Below, piece after piece: positions 867-33,702 of a DNA stretch of 33,966 nt. The position numbers and the translations under genes were made by a program. The notes beneath the pieces are model-generated. The model saw nothing but the letters and a program-made list of their open reading frames with translations, had not been told where the DNA came from and ran no database searches. Location: IMG/VR virus record IMGVR_UViG_3300042940_001787, positions 1 through 33,966 of that record. One strand, 5' to 3'. Within the stretch, counting starts at the first letter, position 1. Each line of letters starts with the position of its first letter. Source of the DNA: a virus (Duplodnaviria; Caudoviricetes).

Positions 867-902
867 CCGGCCGGGGGGTTTCTCCTTTCCCCCCGGCCGG
901 TT
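867..902 (+). terminator. 12-bp GC hairpin with anti-SD loop (terminator/attenuator after capsid genes)
   Basis: CCGGCCGGGGGG (867-878) pairs with CCCCCCGGCCGG (889-900); loop TTTCTCCTTT; only TT follows. Confidence 0.65.
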
Positions 903-13034: not shown

Positions 13035-16000
13035 ATGGCAGAGCAACCCAAACCGCCATTCCCGTTTATTCCTACGCCGACGACCACTCCCGGCCGGTCG
13101 GGTCAGCTGCAGGCTGTCGCGCCAGTCCAGCCCCTCGCACCCGCCGCCACACTCGCCCCGATTAAGCCCATTACCCCGGGGCAGATCAAGCCGCGCCTTG
13201 GCCAGCCCAAGACGTCACCCGGCAAGATGAAGTCACCTGGTCCAAAACTCGGGTTTGACCCTGCACAAACAGTCATCAAACGCCTCGGGACCGAAGCCGA
13301 AATGGGCGGTCGCTTGATCGTTAATGCTATCCCCGGAATGGCTACATTCTTGGGTGGTCTTGCAGCCGACACCAAGGGTCTTCTGTGGAACAAACTTATG
13401 CAGGGGGAAGAGTATGACGCCAACACCGCTCAGATGGTGTGGAATTCTCTTGGGTCAACTGCTGGGTTGGTTTACGATGCCAAGCCAGGGCGCGGCTGGG
13501 GGGCAAGGTGGGGAGATTACTGGCAGGGTCTTAAGGAGGGTACGCCGATTACGCAGCTTCTTCTTGAAGATGTTGGAAACGTTACAATCGTCGGCGGCGC
13601 ACTCTCAAAGGGCGCTTCGCTCGGCGCTAAGGGCCTTGAGACAGGGGCGGCCTGGAATGTCGCCAGTGCTTCCCGGGCAGGGAACGTTTCAAGGTCTGCT
13701 CCCAAAATGTACGCGGCTGCAGAAAGACTTTCCGGCGTAAGCAAGGGTATTAGAACAACCATGGCCCCCGTCAACAGGGCCATGATGCTTCCGATCAAGC
13801 CGTGGTTTTGGACTGCCGGACAGCTAGGCAAACTGGTCCGTAACGGTGCTTATCTTGGGAACGGATACCTAGCCTGGGGCGAGAAGGCGGCGACTGTTTA
13901 TCGACGAAAGGCCGGAGAAACATTTGACAAGATGAAGGATGTTCCTCGCAACAGTGAAGAATTCTCCCTTCTCAACGAAGAATACAACACGTTCAGGAGA
14001 AAGGCAGAACGCAGCGAACGCTGGTCACGTGGTTGGAAGTTTCGGCGCGAGGCATCAGCTGTGGCCCGATCTGCAAGAGACGAAGCGGGACGCGCCTCGC
14101 GCGACATTATTGAAGAAGCAAAGCGCCCGCTGCACAAGGGAGAAACAGACCCCGAAACTGGCGTTACGTATGGCGACCTGAGCATTACCGAACAGGGCGC
14201 GGTATTGGCGGCTCTCGATGGACACGCCCAGCTTCTGTCGCAGCTTTCAAAGCGTTTGGGAATTCCTATTGAAGAGTTGACTCTACTGTCCCGCTATAAT
14301 GCCGCCGAGGGCAAATGGATGACCCCCGAATCGGCCGCTATGGCTGCTGACTTCCTGGACGGCGCTCCCGGCATGAGTCGTATGCAGTATGACCGCCTTG
14401 CCCGCGCGGTTGAAAACGTTGCAAAGTCAATTGCCTCTCAGACTAGCGAAAAGATCATCGGCCTTGGCCGCAAAAGTCCACTTTCTCCGCACCATCTCGT
14501 TCCGGTCCCCGTTGTTGAATATCTTCGCGCCCGTCTTATCGCGGCAGGGCTTGACGACATTGTTGAATTCATGGACAGGGTTGACCACGTTTGGGAACTT
14601 GAGGTCAATGACCCTGACAGGATCGCCCTCCTGCAGTCAATTGTTGAAATCCTGCCTGACGAGATCGCTCTCGACTCTCAGATTTACCCCTCTCCTATGC
14701 GTCCGATCGTCGAGGCGTATCTCCGCATCAGGCGCAATCTTGAGCGCGAAGCCATTGAGGGTGGCACCGGGGAGTTCCCCACATCTCCCAAGTCGGGTCA
14801 GCCCGGAGCCGCTCGTCGCATGGCCGACAAAGCCGGAAGGCTGGCTGACAGGATCAAGGAAAGGATTGATGATCTTGGGAATAGGATTGCCCGCCTGGAG
14901 GAGAAACACGCCAAGTCGGTTGACGACCTCCGAAGACTTGACATCATTGAAGCCCATGTCACTAAAAACCAGCCGGCCCAAAGTCTCGCCGACGAGTTCA
15001 ACGTCCCTGTTCAGGAGATCAACAAGATTCTTGGCAATAGCAGGCTGGTTCAGAGCCATCGCAGAATGCGCCGCCTGTACGAAGAGTACCTCAAAATCCA
15101 GGCAAGAGCCCAGGTTCTAGGCGTTGACGACCTGACCAACCGCTCAATCCTGGAGTCAGAAATCGCCCAGCTAGAAGTTGAGGCCAGGGATGCAAAGGCA
15201 GCGTACGACCTGGAAGTCGCCCGCCTCCAGCAAGAAAGGGCTGCCGTTGACGAAACAATCGAAGTTCTCGAAGAGGACATGGACGGGCTCACCGACGAGA
15301 TGTTCGACGCGGAGGACGATTACATCGATGCCGGTGGCGATCCGGAAGACCTGAATGGTCCCGACGAAACCCTTGCGGAACTTGGTATTGGTCCGGCGCT
15401 TGATGAGGCAAACGTCGATTTTCTTGCCAGGGCTCTCGCCGATGATCCTCAATCCCTGCAGGAAATGGAAGCCGTTCTTCAGCAGAAGGCTTACCTTGAA
15501 GAGCAGATTGCAATTCTTGAAAACCCCACCCCCGAAGAAATTTCCGCGGCAAAGGGTGGACGAATTGCTGAAGCATCTCAAGAGATTGTCAATCTCATGG
15601 ATGAGGCAGAACAGTTTCTTGGCGCCGGGCCGGTCAACGGTCAAATGCGTTTCTACCTTACCCCCGTCAAGGGGAAGCCTGAGTGGGACTGGTGGTATCT
15701 CCTGGACGGGAAAACCAGGAAACGCTGGGGCATGCAGTACTTCCACAGCGAGTCTTCTATTGTGTTGGGCAAGGGCGGAAAAGCCAAGAGGGTCAATTGG
15801 GTCAAGGGCGGAATTGATGGCCTGACCGAACCCCTCAATCTTTCCCCCGACGAATGGGGCGCGAAGTTCATCAACTGGGCCGAGCGTGTTGATGCCGCAA
15901 GGGGGAGACTGAAAGACGCACGGGCGGAAGAACTTACCCCCGCTGAATACAATGCCAAAAACGCCGAGTTGACCCAGGCGTATGACGAGCTTAGTAATCT

Positions 16001-25181: not shown

Positions 25182-25215
25182 GGTAAAGGTGGTCATTGCC
25201 TTAGGAGCTGAACCA

Positions 25216-25841: not shown

Positions 25842-26344
25842 AGAAAGTCAACCAGCTACCGGAACAGGCCACCCCGGAGCTAATCGCAGCATTTCAGCAG
25901 GCGCTCGTCCACATGGATGATTTTCGCCAAGACCTTGCAGAGCAGGGGAACTGGGAAGCTTTGGCGCAGGGCTTGATCCACCTCAACGAGTTTAAGAAGA
26001 ATCTCAGCATTCTTATTGAGGCGATCGAGCTGAACATCAACGAGACACTGCCCGACAAAAAGGTCGTGGCCCCCGGTATCGGCGTCATTGAGAAGCGAAC
26101 CAGCTCCAGCAAGAAGTGGGAGAGCGAAAGGCTGCTCAATGAGATCGTGCGTAGCTGTCTCGACAATGGGACTGGCGAGATCACACCGTCTGACGTGATG
26201 GGGCTGATCGACGTGCTGAAGCGTGTCTTGCCCCTCACTGCATCTCTCGGCTGGCGCAGTACAGAACTTGAACGACACGGGTTTGCACCCAAGGAGTTCA
26301 GCGATACAGTGTGGGGACGCAAGACCGTCAGCATCAAGAAGTAG
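25829..26344 (+). CDS. hypothetical protein (recombination module)
   Basis: Start moved to ATG 25829; 171 aa. Confidence 0.7.
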   Translation: MSELEKVNQLPEQATPELIAAFQQALVHMDDFRQDLAEQGNWEALAQGLIHLNEFKKNLSILIEAIELNINETLPDKKVVAPGIGVIEKRTSSSKKWESERLLNEIVRSCLDNGTGEITPSDVMGLIDVLKRVLPLTASLGWRSTELERHGFAPKEFSDTVWGRKTVSIKK

Positions 26345-26352
26345 GAGGCCCA

Positions 26353-27709: not shown

Positions 27710-27804
27710 GGTGACCCCCGGCGTAGGAGGCACCGCCGGGGGTCATAACAATGATAAACGAAAACCCCGGGGCTGGTTAGACCCCGGGGTTTTGCGTTAG
27801 GAGC
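27710..27804 (-). ncRNA. candidate antisense small RNA with anti-SD 5' end and anti-SD loop
   Basis: Minus-strand TATAAT (27811-27816), 6 nt, then 5'-GCUCCUAA, hairpin 27761-27793, and 12-bp hairpin 27712-27745 with loop GUGCCUCCUA. Confidence 0.45.
27761..27793. terminator. bidirectional intrinsic terminator between convergent operons
   Basis: AAAACCCCGGGG...CCCCGGGGTTTT, giving T-tracts on both strands. Confidence 0.8.
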
Positions 27805-27841
27805 GAAGTGATTATACATCGCGCCTGGGTGCGAGTGGAGG

Positions 27842-28126
27842 CTAGAAGAGCGGAATCTTTCTGCCGTAGACGGTCGTTCCCTTTTCGGTCTTACGTGCGA
27901 CAAATTCGTACTGGTCGCCGTACTTTTTCTGTGCGTCCGAAGCTCGCTGGTAGCCCGACTGCTTGGCGCTGTATGTGTGGAACACCGCCCATACGCCCTC
28001 GTTGGCGTCGAGAAAGGCCACGAATTCGCTCATCAGCGGAAGCCCCTCGCGGTACCCATTGCGGGGCGGCGGGGGAGATTCGATTTGAAATCCGAGTGCG
28101 TTATCGTCACTGTGATGTGTCGGCAT
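27842..28126 (-). CDS. hypothetical protein (possible small DNA-binding protein)
   Basis: 94 aa, with TAGGAG RBS on the minus strand and its own promoter. Confidence 0.75.
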   Translation of the reverse strand: MPTHHSDDNALGFQIESPPPPRNGYREGLPLMSEFVAFLDANEGVWAVFHTYSAKQSGYQRASDAQKKYGDQYEFVARKTEKGTTVYGRKIPLF

Positions 28127-28241: not shown

Positions 28242-28535
28242 CTACACGGGTATCCAGTAGTGGCGGCTCGCGGTAGCAACTTCCAGCGTGAACCGCATCG
28301 CCTGCGCGAGCGTGTCGGGGAAGCCTTTTAGCTCACTCTGCTGGCGCACCACGATCAGCTCGCCTGCGGCTGTTTGGTACTCGATCCGGAGTGCGTATGT
28401 TCCGGCACCTGTTCGGGCGATAATCCAACGGCCCGTTCCGGGGATAGTGTTCACGATCCCGGCAAGCTGTGGTGGGGGCGGCATTTCTTCGGTCAGACGG
28501 TCTGCCAAAATTTCTAGGTCGGAAATAGTTGCCAT
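28242..28535 (-). CDS. hypothetical protein, leaderless
   Basis: 97 aa; minus strand TAGTAT, 6 nt, ATG; small GC hairpin at 28220-28239 after the stop. Confidence 0.65.
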   Translation of the reverse strand: MATISDLEILADRLTEEMPPPPQLAGIVNTIPGTGRWIIARTGAGTYALRIEYQTAAGELIVVRQQSELKGFPDTLAQAMRFTLEVATASRHYWIPV

Positions 28536-28557: not shown

Positions 28558-28595
28558 GCGTCCCGTCACACCCACAACCAAGAAAGAAGGACACC

Positions 28596-29447
28596 GTGAC
28601 TACCACATCCACCCCGAGCTGTTGGTCAGACCTTGACCTCGCTCTCGCCAGCGGTATCGACCGCATCCTGCTGTACGGCAAGCCCGGAACGGGCAAAACC
28701 TACTACGCACTCACGCAACAGCTGAACCACAACCGCCGCACACGGAACGCCTATCGCGTCCTCTGCTCGCCCGACATGACCACCGCCGAGGTGGACGGTC
28801 TGTGGCGACCCAGCAAGGACGAGTGGAAGTTCGCGGAAGGCTCCGCGCTCCGTGCGTGGACGGACGGGGGCAGGCTCATCCTGGACGAGCTTGACCAGGC
28901 TTCCGGCGATGTGCTGACGGCTCTTCTGCTCATCTGCGACTCTGACGGTTCTGCCGTGCGCGAGCATCCCGAGACGGGAGCGAAGATGACCCCGAAGGAA
29001 GGCTTCCAGATCATTGCCACGACCAACGCCGAGCGACTGAGCGATCTCCCAGCAAACCTGCTTGACCGCTTCCCCGTCCGTATCAACATCAACACGGTGA
29101 ACCCAGCCGCGCTGGAAGGACTGCCCCACAACCTGCGCCCCATCGCACAGTCCTACGCCGAACGGGAGAAGAACAGGTACAGCCTGCGCTCGTTCTTCGC
29201 CTACGACCGCCTCGCCAACACGGCCGGGGTCGAGCGTTCCACCGCCCTGCGCCTTGTGTTCGGGGAAGTCGAGGCACGGCAAATCGACCAGGCACTCAGC
29301 ATCGCTGACCTCACCGCCAGCGCAGAGGGCGGTAGCGCGTTCCCCGAGGAGACTCGCTACACGCCTTCGGCCTCCACGCACATCGTGGGCCCCGTTTGCG
29401 AGTGCGACCCCGAACTGGACGAGTCCTGCGAGGAGTGCGACTACTGA
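28596..29447 (+). CDS. MoxR/CbbQ-type (dynein-related) AAA+ ATPase
   Basis: Walker A GKPGTGKT, Walker B LILDE, sensor-1 ATTN, Arg finger LLDRF, sensor-2 SLR. Confidence 0.92.
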   Translation: MTTTSTPSCWSDLDLALASGIDRILLYGKPGTGKTYYALTQQLNHNRRTRNAYRVLCSPDMTTAEVDGLWRPSKDEWKFAEGSALRAWTDGGRLILDELDQASGDVLTALLLICDSDGSAVREHPETGAKMTPKEGFQIIATTNAERLSDLPANLLDRFPVRININTVNPAALEGLPHNLRPIAQSYAEREKNRYSLRSFFAYDRLANTAGVERSTALRLVFGEVEARQIDQALSIADLTASAEGGSAFPEETRYTPSASTHIVGPVCECDPELDESCEECDY

Positions 29448-30991: not shown

Positions 30992-31004
30992 CAAGGAGAG
31001 AACA

Positions 31005-31829
31005 ATGGACGACATACTCAACTCGCGCCCGTCAGAGGTGCTGAACGAATACTTGACCTACGCTGGTTACGACCGCACGGGAAAGACCGACCGTGGAACG
31101 CTGTGCGAGATGCTCGCGTGGTACGACTTCTACGACCCCGAGACGGACGATTTCCGTGGGCGGTTCGTGTCGCTCGGCGTGGGGCAGGAGCCGGATGCCG
31201 CGATTCAGGACGGCTACCTCAACGCGATTCGGATGTACGAGGACGATTACCGCCACGGGCGTACCGAGACCTGCCGGAAGCTTTCCGCCCTGGTGGTTGT
31301 GTTCCGTGCCGAGGGTCGGGTCGTGAACAACCCCGAGCGAGTCGCGGAACCCAACGCCGAGAACGCGCCGTTCCTCCAAGCTGCTGGGTGGGGGATGTGC
31401 CAGACGCGCATTATCCAGGTGCTGACGGTGGACGGTTTCGCCACTCATTCGATCGTGTTCCCTCCCGAGGGGGTCGATGCCGAGCCGCTGGTGGACACCG
31501 CCGAGCTGTTCACGGGGTTCGGGCCGCTCATGATGGACGAGCCCGAGGTGACGGGGAAGATGGGCGCGATACCGTTTATCACGCCCACGCTGTCAATGGT
31601 GCTGGGCATCCTGCTTCTGCTGGGTTTGGCATTGGAGGACGGGCTGCCCCCGACCATTCAGAACCTCGCCCGTGTCGCGTCCCGATACCGCACGGATGAC
31701 GGCGACACGATGGGCGATGAAGTGATGAACCTGCTGGAACGGTTTGCCGACCAACTCGACATTCACCCCTTTGATGGTGCCGAGGGTCTGAGCGAAACCC
31801 TGCGGAGGTTGATGGAGGACGGCGACTAG
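31005..31829 (+). CDS. hypothetical acidic protein
   Basis: 274 aa with AAGGAG RBS. Confidence 0.8.
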   Translation: MDDILNSRPSEVLNEYLTYAGYDRTGKTDRGTLCEMLAWYDFYDPETDDFRGRFVSLGVGQEPDAAIQDGYLNAIRMYEDDYRHGRTETCRKLSALVVVFRAEGRVVNNPERVAEPNAENAPFLQAAGWGMCQTRIIQVLTVDGFATHSIVFPPEGVDAEPLVDTAELFTGFGPLMMDEPEVTGKMGAIPFITPTLSMVLGILLLLGLALEDGLPPTIQNLARVASRYRTDDGDTMGDEVMNLLERFADQLDIHPFDGAEGLSETLRRLMEDGD

Positions 31830-31838
31830 CGGTAGCCT
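31809..31838 (+). promoter_or_regulatory. putative promoter for the three-hairpin RNA
   Basis: TTGATG, 18 nt, TAGCCT. Confidence 0.5.
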
Positions 31839-31844
31839 CCCGAA

Positions 31845-31962
31845 GAAGTGCGGTGCGGGGTTTGGTTGTTGCCCCCGTTCCGCGCGAGTCCGTGGTTCTC
31901 CTTTCCCACGGCGAACGAGCCCCGGCGCGAGTGTCCCCCACTTGCGCCGGGGCTTCGTTTAT
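31845..31962 (+). ncRNA. candidate three-hairpin antisense small RNA
   Basis: Stem 31848-31885 (loop UUUGGUUGUUGC), stem 31890-31911 (loop UUCUCCUUUC), and long terminator stem ~31913-31960 (loop UCCC) followed by a U-rich run. Confidence 0.6.
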
Positions 31963-31972
31963 TCTCCTGGGC

Positions 31973-32191
31973 ATGAGCTATCAAGTGCTGTTAATGTGGT
32001 TGGGGTATTTCGCGCTGTGTGCGGGGTTGGTCGTGTTCGTGCGGTGGGGGATGCCAGAGGACGACCCGAGCGAGTACGCCGCCGATCTCGACCCACGGGT
32101 TCCGCCCCGGATCAAAGGGACGAAGGCACACGCCTACAAGCTGACGCGCCCCCGGTGCCGCTGTTGCGGTCGGCGGTTGCGCCGTTGGTGA
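31973..32191 (+). CDS. small membrane protein with C-terminal Cys motif, leaderless
   Basis: TATTCT, 7 nt, ATG; N-terminal TM helix; CRCCG near the end. Confidence 0.6.
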   Translation: MSYQVLLMWLGYFALCAGLVVFVRWGMPEDDPSEYAADLDPRVPPRIKGTKAHAYKLTRPRCRCCGRRLRRW

Positions 32192-32194
32192 TTC

Positions 32195-32223
32195 TTGACA
32201 GGTGGCACGGGGTCGGTTATTGT
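32195..32223 (+). promoter_or_regulatory. strong sigma70/SigA promoter
   Basis: TTGACA, 17 nt, TATTGT. Confidence 0.8.
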
Positions 32224-32255
32224 TCCCCCGTCACTCAACTACCAAAGGAGACACC

Positions 32256-32759
32256 GTGACTACTTCACCAACACCGCTGGCACTCTTGGAGTGTCCAGAC
32301 CTTCCGCCGTGGGTCTCATCCGACCTCGGGCCGTCCTGGGCGAATCACCCTGCGCGACTTGATGACGGGATGACGCGCCCGGAGCTGTGGCAGATTCTCG
32401 CTGACGGTCAGGGCATCCGCTGGGCTTCTGACGCGCTCGATGTGTACGACCTGCTGTGCGAGTACGGCGACGCCCTGCGCCTGTTTCCCCAGTCCGACGA
32501 TCTCGCCGGGGTCGTGCTGTTCACTTCGGGTTGGGCCGCCCCCATGCCCGAGGACGGCTCAGACCTCATTGGCGCACCGTCTGCCCATGCTCTGCGGAGG
32601 CGCGTCTATCTCGCGGTCTGCGTGGATTCGCGCGGTATCGCCTCGCGTCTGCGTTTCGCGGATTCCTCCGAGGTCGTGGACGATGAGGAAGGCGGCGCTA
32701 CGGGTTCGCTCGCGGATGCCATTGCCGAGACTGTCGCCCCCCTGTGGGGTGGCAAGTGA
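32256..32759 (+). CDS. hypothetical early protein
   Basis: Start moved to GTG 32256 after AAAGGAG; 'TSGWAAP...PSAHALRRRV'. Confidence 0.8.
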   Translation: MTTSPTPLALLECPDLPPWVSSDLGPSWANHPARLDDGMTRPELWQILADGQGIRWASDALDVYDLLCEYGDALRLFPQSDDLAGVVLFTSGWAAPMPEDGSDLIGAPSAHALRRRVYLAVCVDSRGIASRLRFADSSEVVDDEEGGATGSLADAIAETVAPLWGGK

Positions 32760-33085: not shown

Positions 33086-33152
33086 CGGCCCGCGCGAAGA
33101 TCACCGCGCCGACGATCTCCGCGCCTGCCCCCACCTGGGCGCGGAACCAAGA

Positions 33153-33191
33153 CAGCCCCACCGTCACCCCCTGGCGGTGGGGCTGCTCTTT
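33153..33191 (+). terminator. intrinsic terminator with C5 loop
   Basis: 14-bp stem CAGCCCCACCGTCA / TGGCGGTGGGGCTG, then CTCTTT. Confidence 0.75.
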
Positions 33192-33225: not shown

Positions 33226-33270
33226 CCCCCGTAGCGGCGAGACCCTCGCCCCGAACAAAGGAGAGAACCA

Positions 33271-33702
33271 ATGACCAGAGACCCCGACCCGACACCGCCC
33301 CACGGCATCCCACGACCGCCAGCGTTCGCGCCCACGGACATTGACCGCGCTCGCGCCTTCGTTCGTGACTGGACGGGCATAACGAACGCCCCCGAACACC
33401 TGCGTGACCTCGCCACGCTTGCCCAAGTGCTTGACCTCGTGGAAGGGTTCGCTGCTTCGTACTTCGCTGAGGACGCGCACGGCGTGGACTTGTACGCGCA
33501 GGAGGCTGGCGCGCTGTCGGTGTTCCGGGCCTGCGCGAACTGCCGCACTTGGCATGACCGCGCCGACCTGGACGGGTTCGGGCTGTGCGAATGGTGCCAG
33601 GACGAGGAGGACGAGGAGGAGGACGAGGACGACCTCGCGCCGTCCCCGTGGGAGCGTGTCACGGACGCTCGGCACCCGTTCGGTAACGCGCTGGAACGCT
33701 GA
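33271..33702 (+). CDS. hypothetical protein with CxxC-CxxC zinc ribbon and acidic tract
   Basis: AAAGGAG RBS; CANC...CEWC followed by DEEDEEEDEDD. Confidence 0.8.
   Translation: MTRDPDPTPPHGIPRPPAFAPTDIDRARAFVRDWTGITNAPEHLRDLATLAQVLDLVEGFAASYFAEDAHGVDLYAQEAGALSVFRACANCRTWHDRADLDGFGLCEWCQDEEDEEEDEDDLAPSPWERVTDARHPFGNALER

Follow-up and report, generated by a model that had tools for sequence, protein, structure and literature searches.

A conserved hairpin-and-terminator element, probably a regulatory antisense RNA, in phages of likely actinobacterial hosts

The CI RNA of P4 is, like c4, a multi-loop antisense RNA of a phage, and c4 matures by processing out of the transcript under its control. 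Cuckoo sRNAs of the Alphaproteobacteria (RSs0680/CcsR-type) consist of two to four hairpins, with the motif CCUCCUCCC in each loop (PMC4615179). The 6C sRNA of high-GC Gram-positives is reported to bind several mRNAs through pyrimidine loops, independently of a chaperone in mycobacteria (PMC6486639). For c4 of phages P1 and P7, the accounts describe a phage antisense RNA with loops that pair near the RBS of the phage's own mRNA and so block translation, and with a lineage-specific action seen as heteroimmunity (PMC12197685, PMC8198154).

The element considered here lies on a phage contig of 33,966 nt detected in lake and freshwater metagenomes, and "the window" denotes this whole stretch of analyzed DNA. 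An earlier note on the DNA had named C4/CI and the cuckoo sRNAs as precedents; the predicted mode of action is indeed c4-like, but membership in the c4 and cuckoo families does not follow. Like c4, the element appears to be a phage-encoded structured RNA with loops predicted to pair near the phage's own RBSs and a lineage-specific match between RNA and target. Unlike P1/P7, there is no c4-icd-ant immunity operon here and no integrase in near-complete relatives, the predicted targets are several separately transcribed early cassettes, and the element has its own -10 box and terminator in a phage with a probably actinobacterial host. This layout suggests a transcription start of its own, unlike the processed c4. 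The Rfam C4 model found no match on the element at E<=1 and none at gathering score in the loci of five relatives. Adjacent hairpins, variable stems, an anti-SD-like loop, and a terminator-like hairpin downstream recall the cuckoo sRNAs, whereas the present element is phage-encoded, probably in a host outside the Alphaproteobacteria, and has one anti-SD loop, which is variable and tracks phage leaders; the motif CCUCCUCCC occurs in none of its loops, which differ from each other. Pyrimidine loops, several mRNAs as (here predicted) partners, and the probable host phylum are shared with 6C, but the loops of the element are U/C-mixed where those of 6C are C-rich, and the predicted targets lie on the phage itself. 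The 6C model (RF01066) has no match on the element, its sole 6C-like match being at 33113-33191 with 33.3 bits against a cut-off of 47 (E 0.79). Membership in c4, cuckoo, or 6C was rejected by these model, motif, and context tests, and the Rfam search proposed in the earlier note returned no covariance-model match on the element at E<=1.

In the literature consulted, mostly outside subscription papers, an RNA of this type is not described for any actinobacterial phage. The element may be among the 8,495 unnamed IMG/VR RNA candidates of PMC10690425; six contig ids were not found in three of that paper's supplement files. The element is real and conserved and is probably a regulatory antisense RNA. 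The reading favored here, held with somewhat better than even confidence from comparative sequence evidence, is that the conserved hairpin and terminator behind a -10 box form an sRNA of ~118 nt (75-110 nt in relatives) whose loop would pair with the RBSs of the phage's own early genes and lower their translation.

Genome setting, architecture, and conservation

The window encodes tail-fibre, adaptor, endolysin-like peptidase, RusA, RecT-like, DenV-like, and Rpf-like transglycosylase proteins, and several orphan genes share its right end with the AAA ATPase operon (Table 1), in which the partner of the ATPase is a putative vWA-like protein named by its motif (PHROG 33218). Relatives with a capsid protein 89-93% identical have genomes of 42-44 kb, and thus ~8-9 kb is missing from the window genome. 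The host is likely an actinobacterium, because one relative carries a WhiB gene and 17 of the 18 vWA-like relatives in genome bins fall outside the Proteobacteria, most of them titled Actinomycetota, Acidimicrobiia, or Ilumatobacteraceae. None of the three near-complete relatives encodes a tyrosine integrase (PF00589), a serine recombinase (PF07508), or an HTH_3 repressor (PF01381), no antirepressor family matched the ORFs neighboring the element, and the phages are apparently lytic. A distant vWA-like relative sits within a long chromosomal contig of 647 kb from an actinobacterial bin (L319), so that integration may occur in part of the wider family. We infer that the right-end cassettes are early from their host-type promoters and layout.

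Table 1. Coordinates of the element, its predicted targets, and neighboring features in the window
Feature	Position	Strand	Remarks
Post-capsid hairpin, loop-2 sequence	867..900	+	12 bp; after capsid and next gene; 8 nt before next RBS
Second candidate antisense RNA	27761..27816	-	-10 box 27816-27811; unpaired seed ~27804-27794 (~11 nt); terminator 27793-27761
AAA ATPase leader	28574..28582	+	Possible loop-1 target, weak
MoxR-type AAA ATPase	28596-29447		Right end of window
RBS of ORF 31005	30993..30999	+	Possible loop-2 target, 7 nt
Gene 3, 274 aa, no family	31005..31829	+	Upstream of element; AAA ATPase / vWA-like / gene 3 operon
Proposed -35 hexamer TTGATG	31809..31814	+	In last codons of ORF 31005-31829; unconserved, doubtful
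-10 box TAGCCT (TAnnnT)	31833..31838	+	18 nt after TTGATG; predicted start ~31845
Hairpin 1	31848..31885	+	U/G-rich loop 31861-31872; window's lineage only
Hairpin 2	31890..31911	+	Anti-RBS loop 31896-31905; conserved core, likely pairing site
Hairpin 3, intrinsic-terminator-like	31917..31962	+	17-bp stem 31917-31955, then U-rich tail
-10 box	31960..31965	+	Overlaps terminator tail; 7 nt before ATG of ORF 31973-32191
Promoter of ORF 32256-32759	32195-32223	+	Strains: spacer with many changes, TTGACA and TAnnnT constant
Leader of ORF 32256-32759	32236..32251	+	Predicted main target; loop 2 8 bp at 32244-32251, loop 1 10/11 at 32236-32246
RBS of ORF 33271-33702	33257..33264	+	Predicted loop-2 target

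The region 31843-31965 folds into three hairpins with an MFE of -72 kcal/mol (z -6.78), equaled by none of 200 shuffles. Loop 2 is open, with an opening cost of 0.01 kcal/mol, and its target sites are accessible at 1.2-2.3 kcal/mol. The comparison with strains rests on X20 and X21, contigs that span the element in full; X16 covers it in part. Contigs from the two RNA-labelled runs, X22 and X23, do not extend over the element and are uninformative as to its transcription. Eight element positions differ in X20/X21, of which six are in stems with all pairs kept, one is in a stem mismatch, and one is in loop 2, while six random stem transitions would all be pair-keeping in 4.5% of trials (p ~0.045). 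The changes in hairpin 3 comprise the compensatory G31919A+C31953T and three further pair-keeping substitutions, and in hairpin 1 G31855A turns a G-U pair into A-U and T31854C sits in the mismatch. Among the rows listed, X17 has both the compensatory G31919A+C31953T pair and T31897A, and loop 1 and the leader at 32236-32251 are invariant in the strains. Fold, z score, shuffles, and strain substitutions all agree with the earlier description of three consecutive stems closing in a terminator.

Syntenic relatives were collected by a scan with AAA alignment, and in each the homologous third gene is followed by a -10 box, then a single pyrimidine-loop hairpin, and lastly a terminator, the tail of which overlaps the -10 box of a next cassette that opens with a small predicted membrane protein. 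In the window this protein (ORF 31973-32191, +) has no RBS and is probably leaderless; the relatives' gene at that position has a strong RBS, which pairs with their own loop. A covariance model (R1) built from eight relatives, with the window excluded, matches 31878-31965 in the window (hairpin 2 plus terminator) at E 1e-9, and all 12 close-relative contigs that cover the region have a match at the corresponding position. Eight of these are training rows and three more are near-copies of training rows, the remaining contig (L098) being independent. One further contig (L182) ends 58 nt past gene 3 and hence was unscored for the element, which is absent from L107 and L144 (AAA 50-54%). Both sides had changed in 11 of 21 stem pairs, a count reached by none of 500 shuffles and by none of the slid controls, in an alignment that is fitted to the structure. 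Stem covariation among homologs, one of the checks the earlier note had set out, is thus present.

The promoter proposed in that note, TTGATG-N18-TAGCCT, was confirmed as a sequence and for its -10 box, but its -35 hexamer is coding and a TTG-type hexamer at 16-18 nt spacing is found in none of eight relatives. TAnnnT precedes the first stem by 4-9 nt in all nine members examined and by exactly 7 nt in six, against a background of 3-5% per site at random places, a spacing that would place the 5' end of the RNA at its own stem. No ORF lies between the -10 box and the terminator in these members. The promoter-led unit of three hairpins is therefore real in the window, but the conserved core is smaller: a -10 box, one anti-RBS hairpin, and a terminator. 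A counterpart of hairpin 1 is absent from the relatives examined and was seen in the window's lineage only; a three-hairpin relative was not found in 15 of 64 parts of the metagenome scan, which is not proof of absence. The stem of hairpin 1 aligns with the relatives' single hairpin, which suggests a duplicated hairpin with an altered loop. The exact two-loop pattern occurs at 97 loci in viral contigs with no homolog among the best 40 by stem length, a stem-loop pattern scan (10 of 64 parts) gave 120 loci with one true member, a near-copy of L104, blastn/tblastn against GenBank phages gave no match, and single-protein locus scans were likewise empty. Two further roles for the sequence were rejected: the loop as a minus-strand RBS, as a start codon at usable distance is lacking, and the element as an inverted copy of a leader, as the motif order is unmirrored.

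Pairing of the loops with early-gene leaders

The matches given in the earlier note hold at 32236-32246 (10/11), 28574-28581, 32244-32251, 33257-33264, and 30993-30999. The note had treated loop 1 as the key evidence, beyond what SD similarity explains, and this emphasis did not survive. The fit of loop 1 is not clearly above chance against shuffled loops (p 0.074), none of its 25 best genome-wide sites is a named leader, and the leaders of relatives that have no loop 1 fit it equally well or better (-9.8 to -11.7 vs -10.3 kcal/mol), since A/C-rich stretches are general in such leaders. Window-wide there are 11 loop-1 matches at <=2 mismatches, itself included, vs 8.55 expected, and the leaders rank within the top 2-3% of windows. 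A short hairpin whose loop is A/C-rich opens the early leaders at L100 3066, L103 777, L104 8700, and L183 3719 as well as several leaders of G003; this hairpin is missing from the window's leaders, and the 3' part of loop 1 is its exact complement over 8 nt. Loop 1 may be an accessory contact or may have its target in the missing part of the genome, and hairpin 1 might perhaps add contacts on the A/C-rich leader stretch.

Conversely, the loop-2 matches, which had been discounted as likeness among SDs, gain in weight because the loop-2 equivalent tracks each phage's own RBS variant. In the window, the RBSs at 32244 and 33257 each pair with the loop over 8 nt. In L101 a C-run loop pairs over 8-9 nt with that phage's own G-run RBSs, the L104 loop pairs over 9 nt (11 counting G-U) with its own 8293 leader, and the L098 loop pairs over 7 nt with three of its own RBSs; L105 has the weakest loop-leader fit among the relatives. 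An Atlas search with the protein of ORF 32256, downstream of the main predicted target, yielded nothing beyond viral clusters without names and one lead, to PPA1309, at 0.85.

Co-variation of loop and target, the second check set out in the earlier note, was assessed by scoring every loop against every leader, correcting the matrix for row and column effects, and was tested by permutation, using leaders chosen by hand after an SD-type regex. Own leaders are favored over relatives' leaders in 26 of 28 phage pairs, an advantage with a permutation p of 0.0001 over eight phages and 0.0004 over seven lineages, the tree of which is star-like save for the sisters L100/L103. The advantage persists within the five C-run phages (p 0.017) and when any one lineage is left out (p 0.001-0.003). 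It is weaker when only Watson-Crick runs are counted (p 0.014-0.097) and when the loops are lengthened to take in part of the stem (p 0.017-0.024). The predicted pairing is short, at 7-11 bp and ~-10 kcal/mol, and the named leaders are only two of loop 2's 12 best genome-wide sites. In the strains, T31897A in loop 2 (X17, X21) is not accompanied by a corresponding change at 32244-32251, and among the rows listed part of the X17 contigs carry a 2-nt deletion at 33261, which would eliminate the 2-nt bulge of the proposed loop-2 pairing.

These controls bear on the view that the locus is only a terminator with a stabilizing hairpin, and that its pyrimidine loops fit purine RBSs simply through base composition. 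Hairpin 3 has the form of a textbook terminator, leader composition explains loop 1, and AAGGAGA by itself is unenriched in the window (5 vs 3.9 expected), all as that view would have it; the plus-strand copies are early-gene RBSs in three of three cases. However, none of 60 sets of composition-kept shuffled loops reaches the observed own-phage advantage, such an advantage is seen neither for windows within the coding sequence of the genes concerned (p 0.29-0.40) nor for automatically called non-early leaders (p 0.99), and the spacing of the -10 box is conserved, which leaves an explanation by composition quite unlikely.

A generic anti-SD RNA, mimicking the 16S tail and broadly lowering host translation with incidental phage matches, receives a similarly low probability. 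Loop 2 of the window is identical over 8 nt to the 16S tail from an Acidimicrobiia genome, the loop of the post-capsid hairpin is nearly invariant and 16S-like, and the loops of the distant phages L147 and L253 are 16S-like as well. Yet most relatives' loops depart from the 16S tail, losing complementarity to the consensus SD and gaining it to their own early RBSs, which argues for targets on the phage and not in the host.

Distant phages and companion hairpins

Beyond the close relatives, L280 and L281 have a hairpin and terminator after the vWA-like gene (L280 6604-6682), and the L280 loop matches its phage's own unusual RBS variant in six leaders by 8-9 nt. A de novo scan of 184 distant loci gave seven elements, of which four favor their own leaders (L280, L281, L250, L185) and three do not (L141, L197, L247); the loops of L240 and L241 match their own leaders poorly. 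Hairpin-plus-terminator units or terminator loops complementary to the phage's own RBS variants were seen in the distant AAA/vWA phages L280, L256, L147, and L253.

All seven loci examined also have, on the minus strand, a second candidate antisense RNA. Its seed in the window matches the RBS at 25201-25208 (+), and in five of six genomes the longest plus-strand match of the seed, its own site aside, falls on the RBS of one homologous gene (8-13 nt); in G005 that RBS ranks third, behind two 9-nt matches, one of which is the AAA RBS. A strong hairpin with a CCUCC loop (27745-27712, -) stands directly behind the terminator of this RNA in five of seven loci with changed stems, and the copy in the window has an 8-nt match to the RBS at 26342-26349. 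Two small leftward genes, 27842-28126 (-) and 28242-28535 (-), are divergent from the AAA promoter; the former is 67-81% identical in close relatives, has no Pfam or PHROG family match, and is a candidate regulator. The post-capsid hairpin is kept, with differing stems, in all four relatives that hold the region (G001, G002, G003, and G005). At 33113-33191 (+), two hairpins have C-run loops, the second resembling a cassette terminator, and a similar pair occurs in L101 at 14559-14642.

A rival reading takes the hairpin as the 3' tail of the AAA/vWA/gene 3 mRNA, intact or processed, with the same pairing of loop and RBS but lacking a separate promoter. In its favor, the element invariably comes after the last stop codon of the operon, no -35 is conserved, the L280 copy follows the vWA stop without a -10 box, and the hairpin at 867-900 likewise lies within an mRNA. 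The near-fixed distance of TAnnnT from the stem in nine of nine members speaks against an mRNA tail, as does the division among leaders, with no own-phage advantage for those of the upstream operon itself (p 0.15) and a clear one for those of the downstream cassettes (p 0.001). An origin as an mRNA tail is accordingly judged improbable, though less so than either compositional matching or a generic anti-SD effect.

A proposed role in timing early expression

In the favored reading, a separately transcribed sRNA, host RNA polymerase would start at ~31845 and the RNA would begin with a protective stem, be stable, and build up after infection. The open pyrimidine loop could then bind exposed early RBSs without a chaperone, as is reported for mycobacterial 6C (PMC6486639), and by masking these RBSs the RNA would feed back negatively, with a delay, on expression of the early cassettes, 32256 and 33271 being affected first. 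The earlier note had inferred an sRNA that shuts off early genes or gives immunity; the former is supported by conservation, the geometry of the -10 box, and the co-variation of stems and of loop with leader, while immunity has little support, since the lack of an integrase or repressor in the three near-complete relatives makes such a role unlikely. The same mechanism could serve to exclude later-arriving kin phages, or to maintain a carrier state, if stored RNA blocked the early translation of a newcomer. The lineage-specific loop would fit, by comparison with P1/P7 c4 heteroimmunity (PMC12197685), but the absence of the integrase, recombinase, and repressor families and the cross-reaction of loops between relatives weigh against it, and kin exclusion is considered about as unlikely as an mRNA tail.

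The sRNA reading can be extended, tentatively and with the odds against it, to a set of small antisense RNAs by which lytic actinobacterial phages would time expression instead of using a repressor. The element would co-evolve with the lineage-specific RBS that the early cassettes share, the tiny RNA at 27804-27761 would be directed against the foremost RBS in the operon that follows, and the 16S-tail-like hairpin of the capsid message would act late. The proposal bears on how small lytic phages with neither a repressor nor a polymerase of their own lower their early genes, and to our knowledge few phage sRNAs with several phage targets have been described. If the proposal is true, the RBS variant would serve as an address through which a phage can switch off its genes as a class. 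As the loop and its targets differ between relatives in matching fashion, the mechanism would be approachable without the uncultured host.
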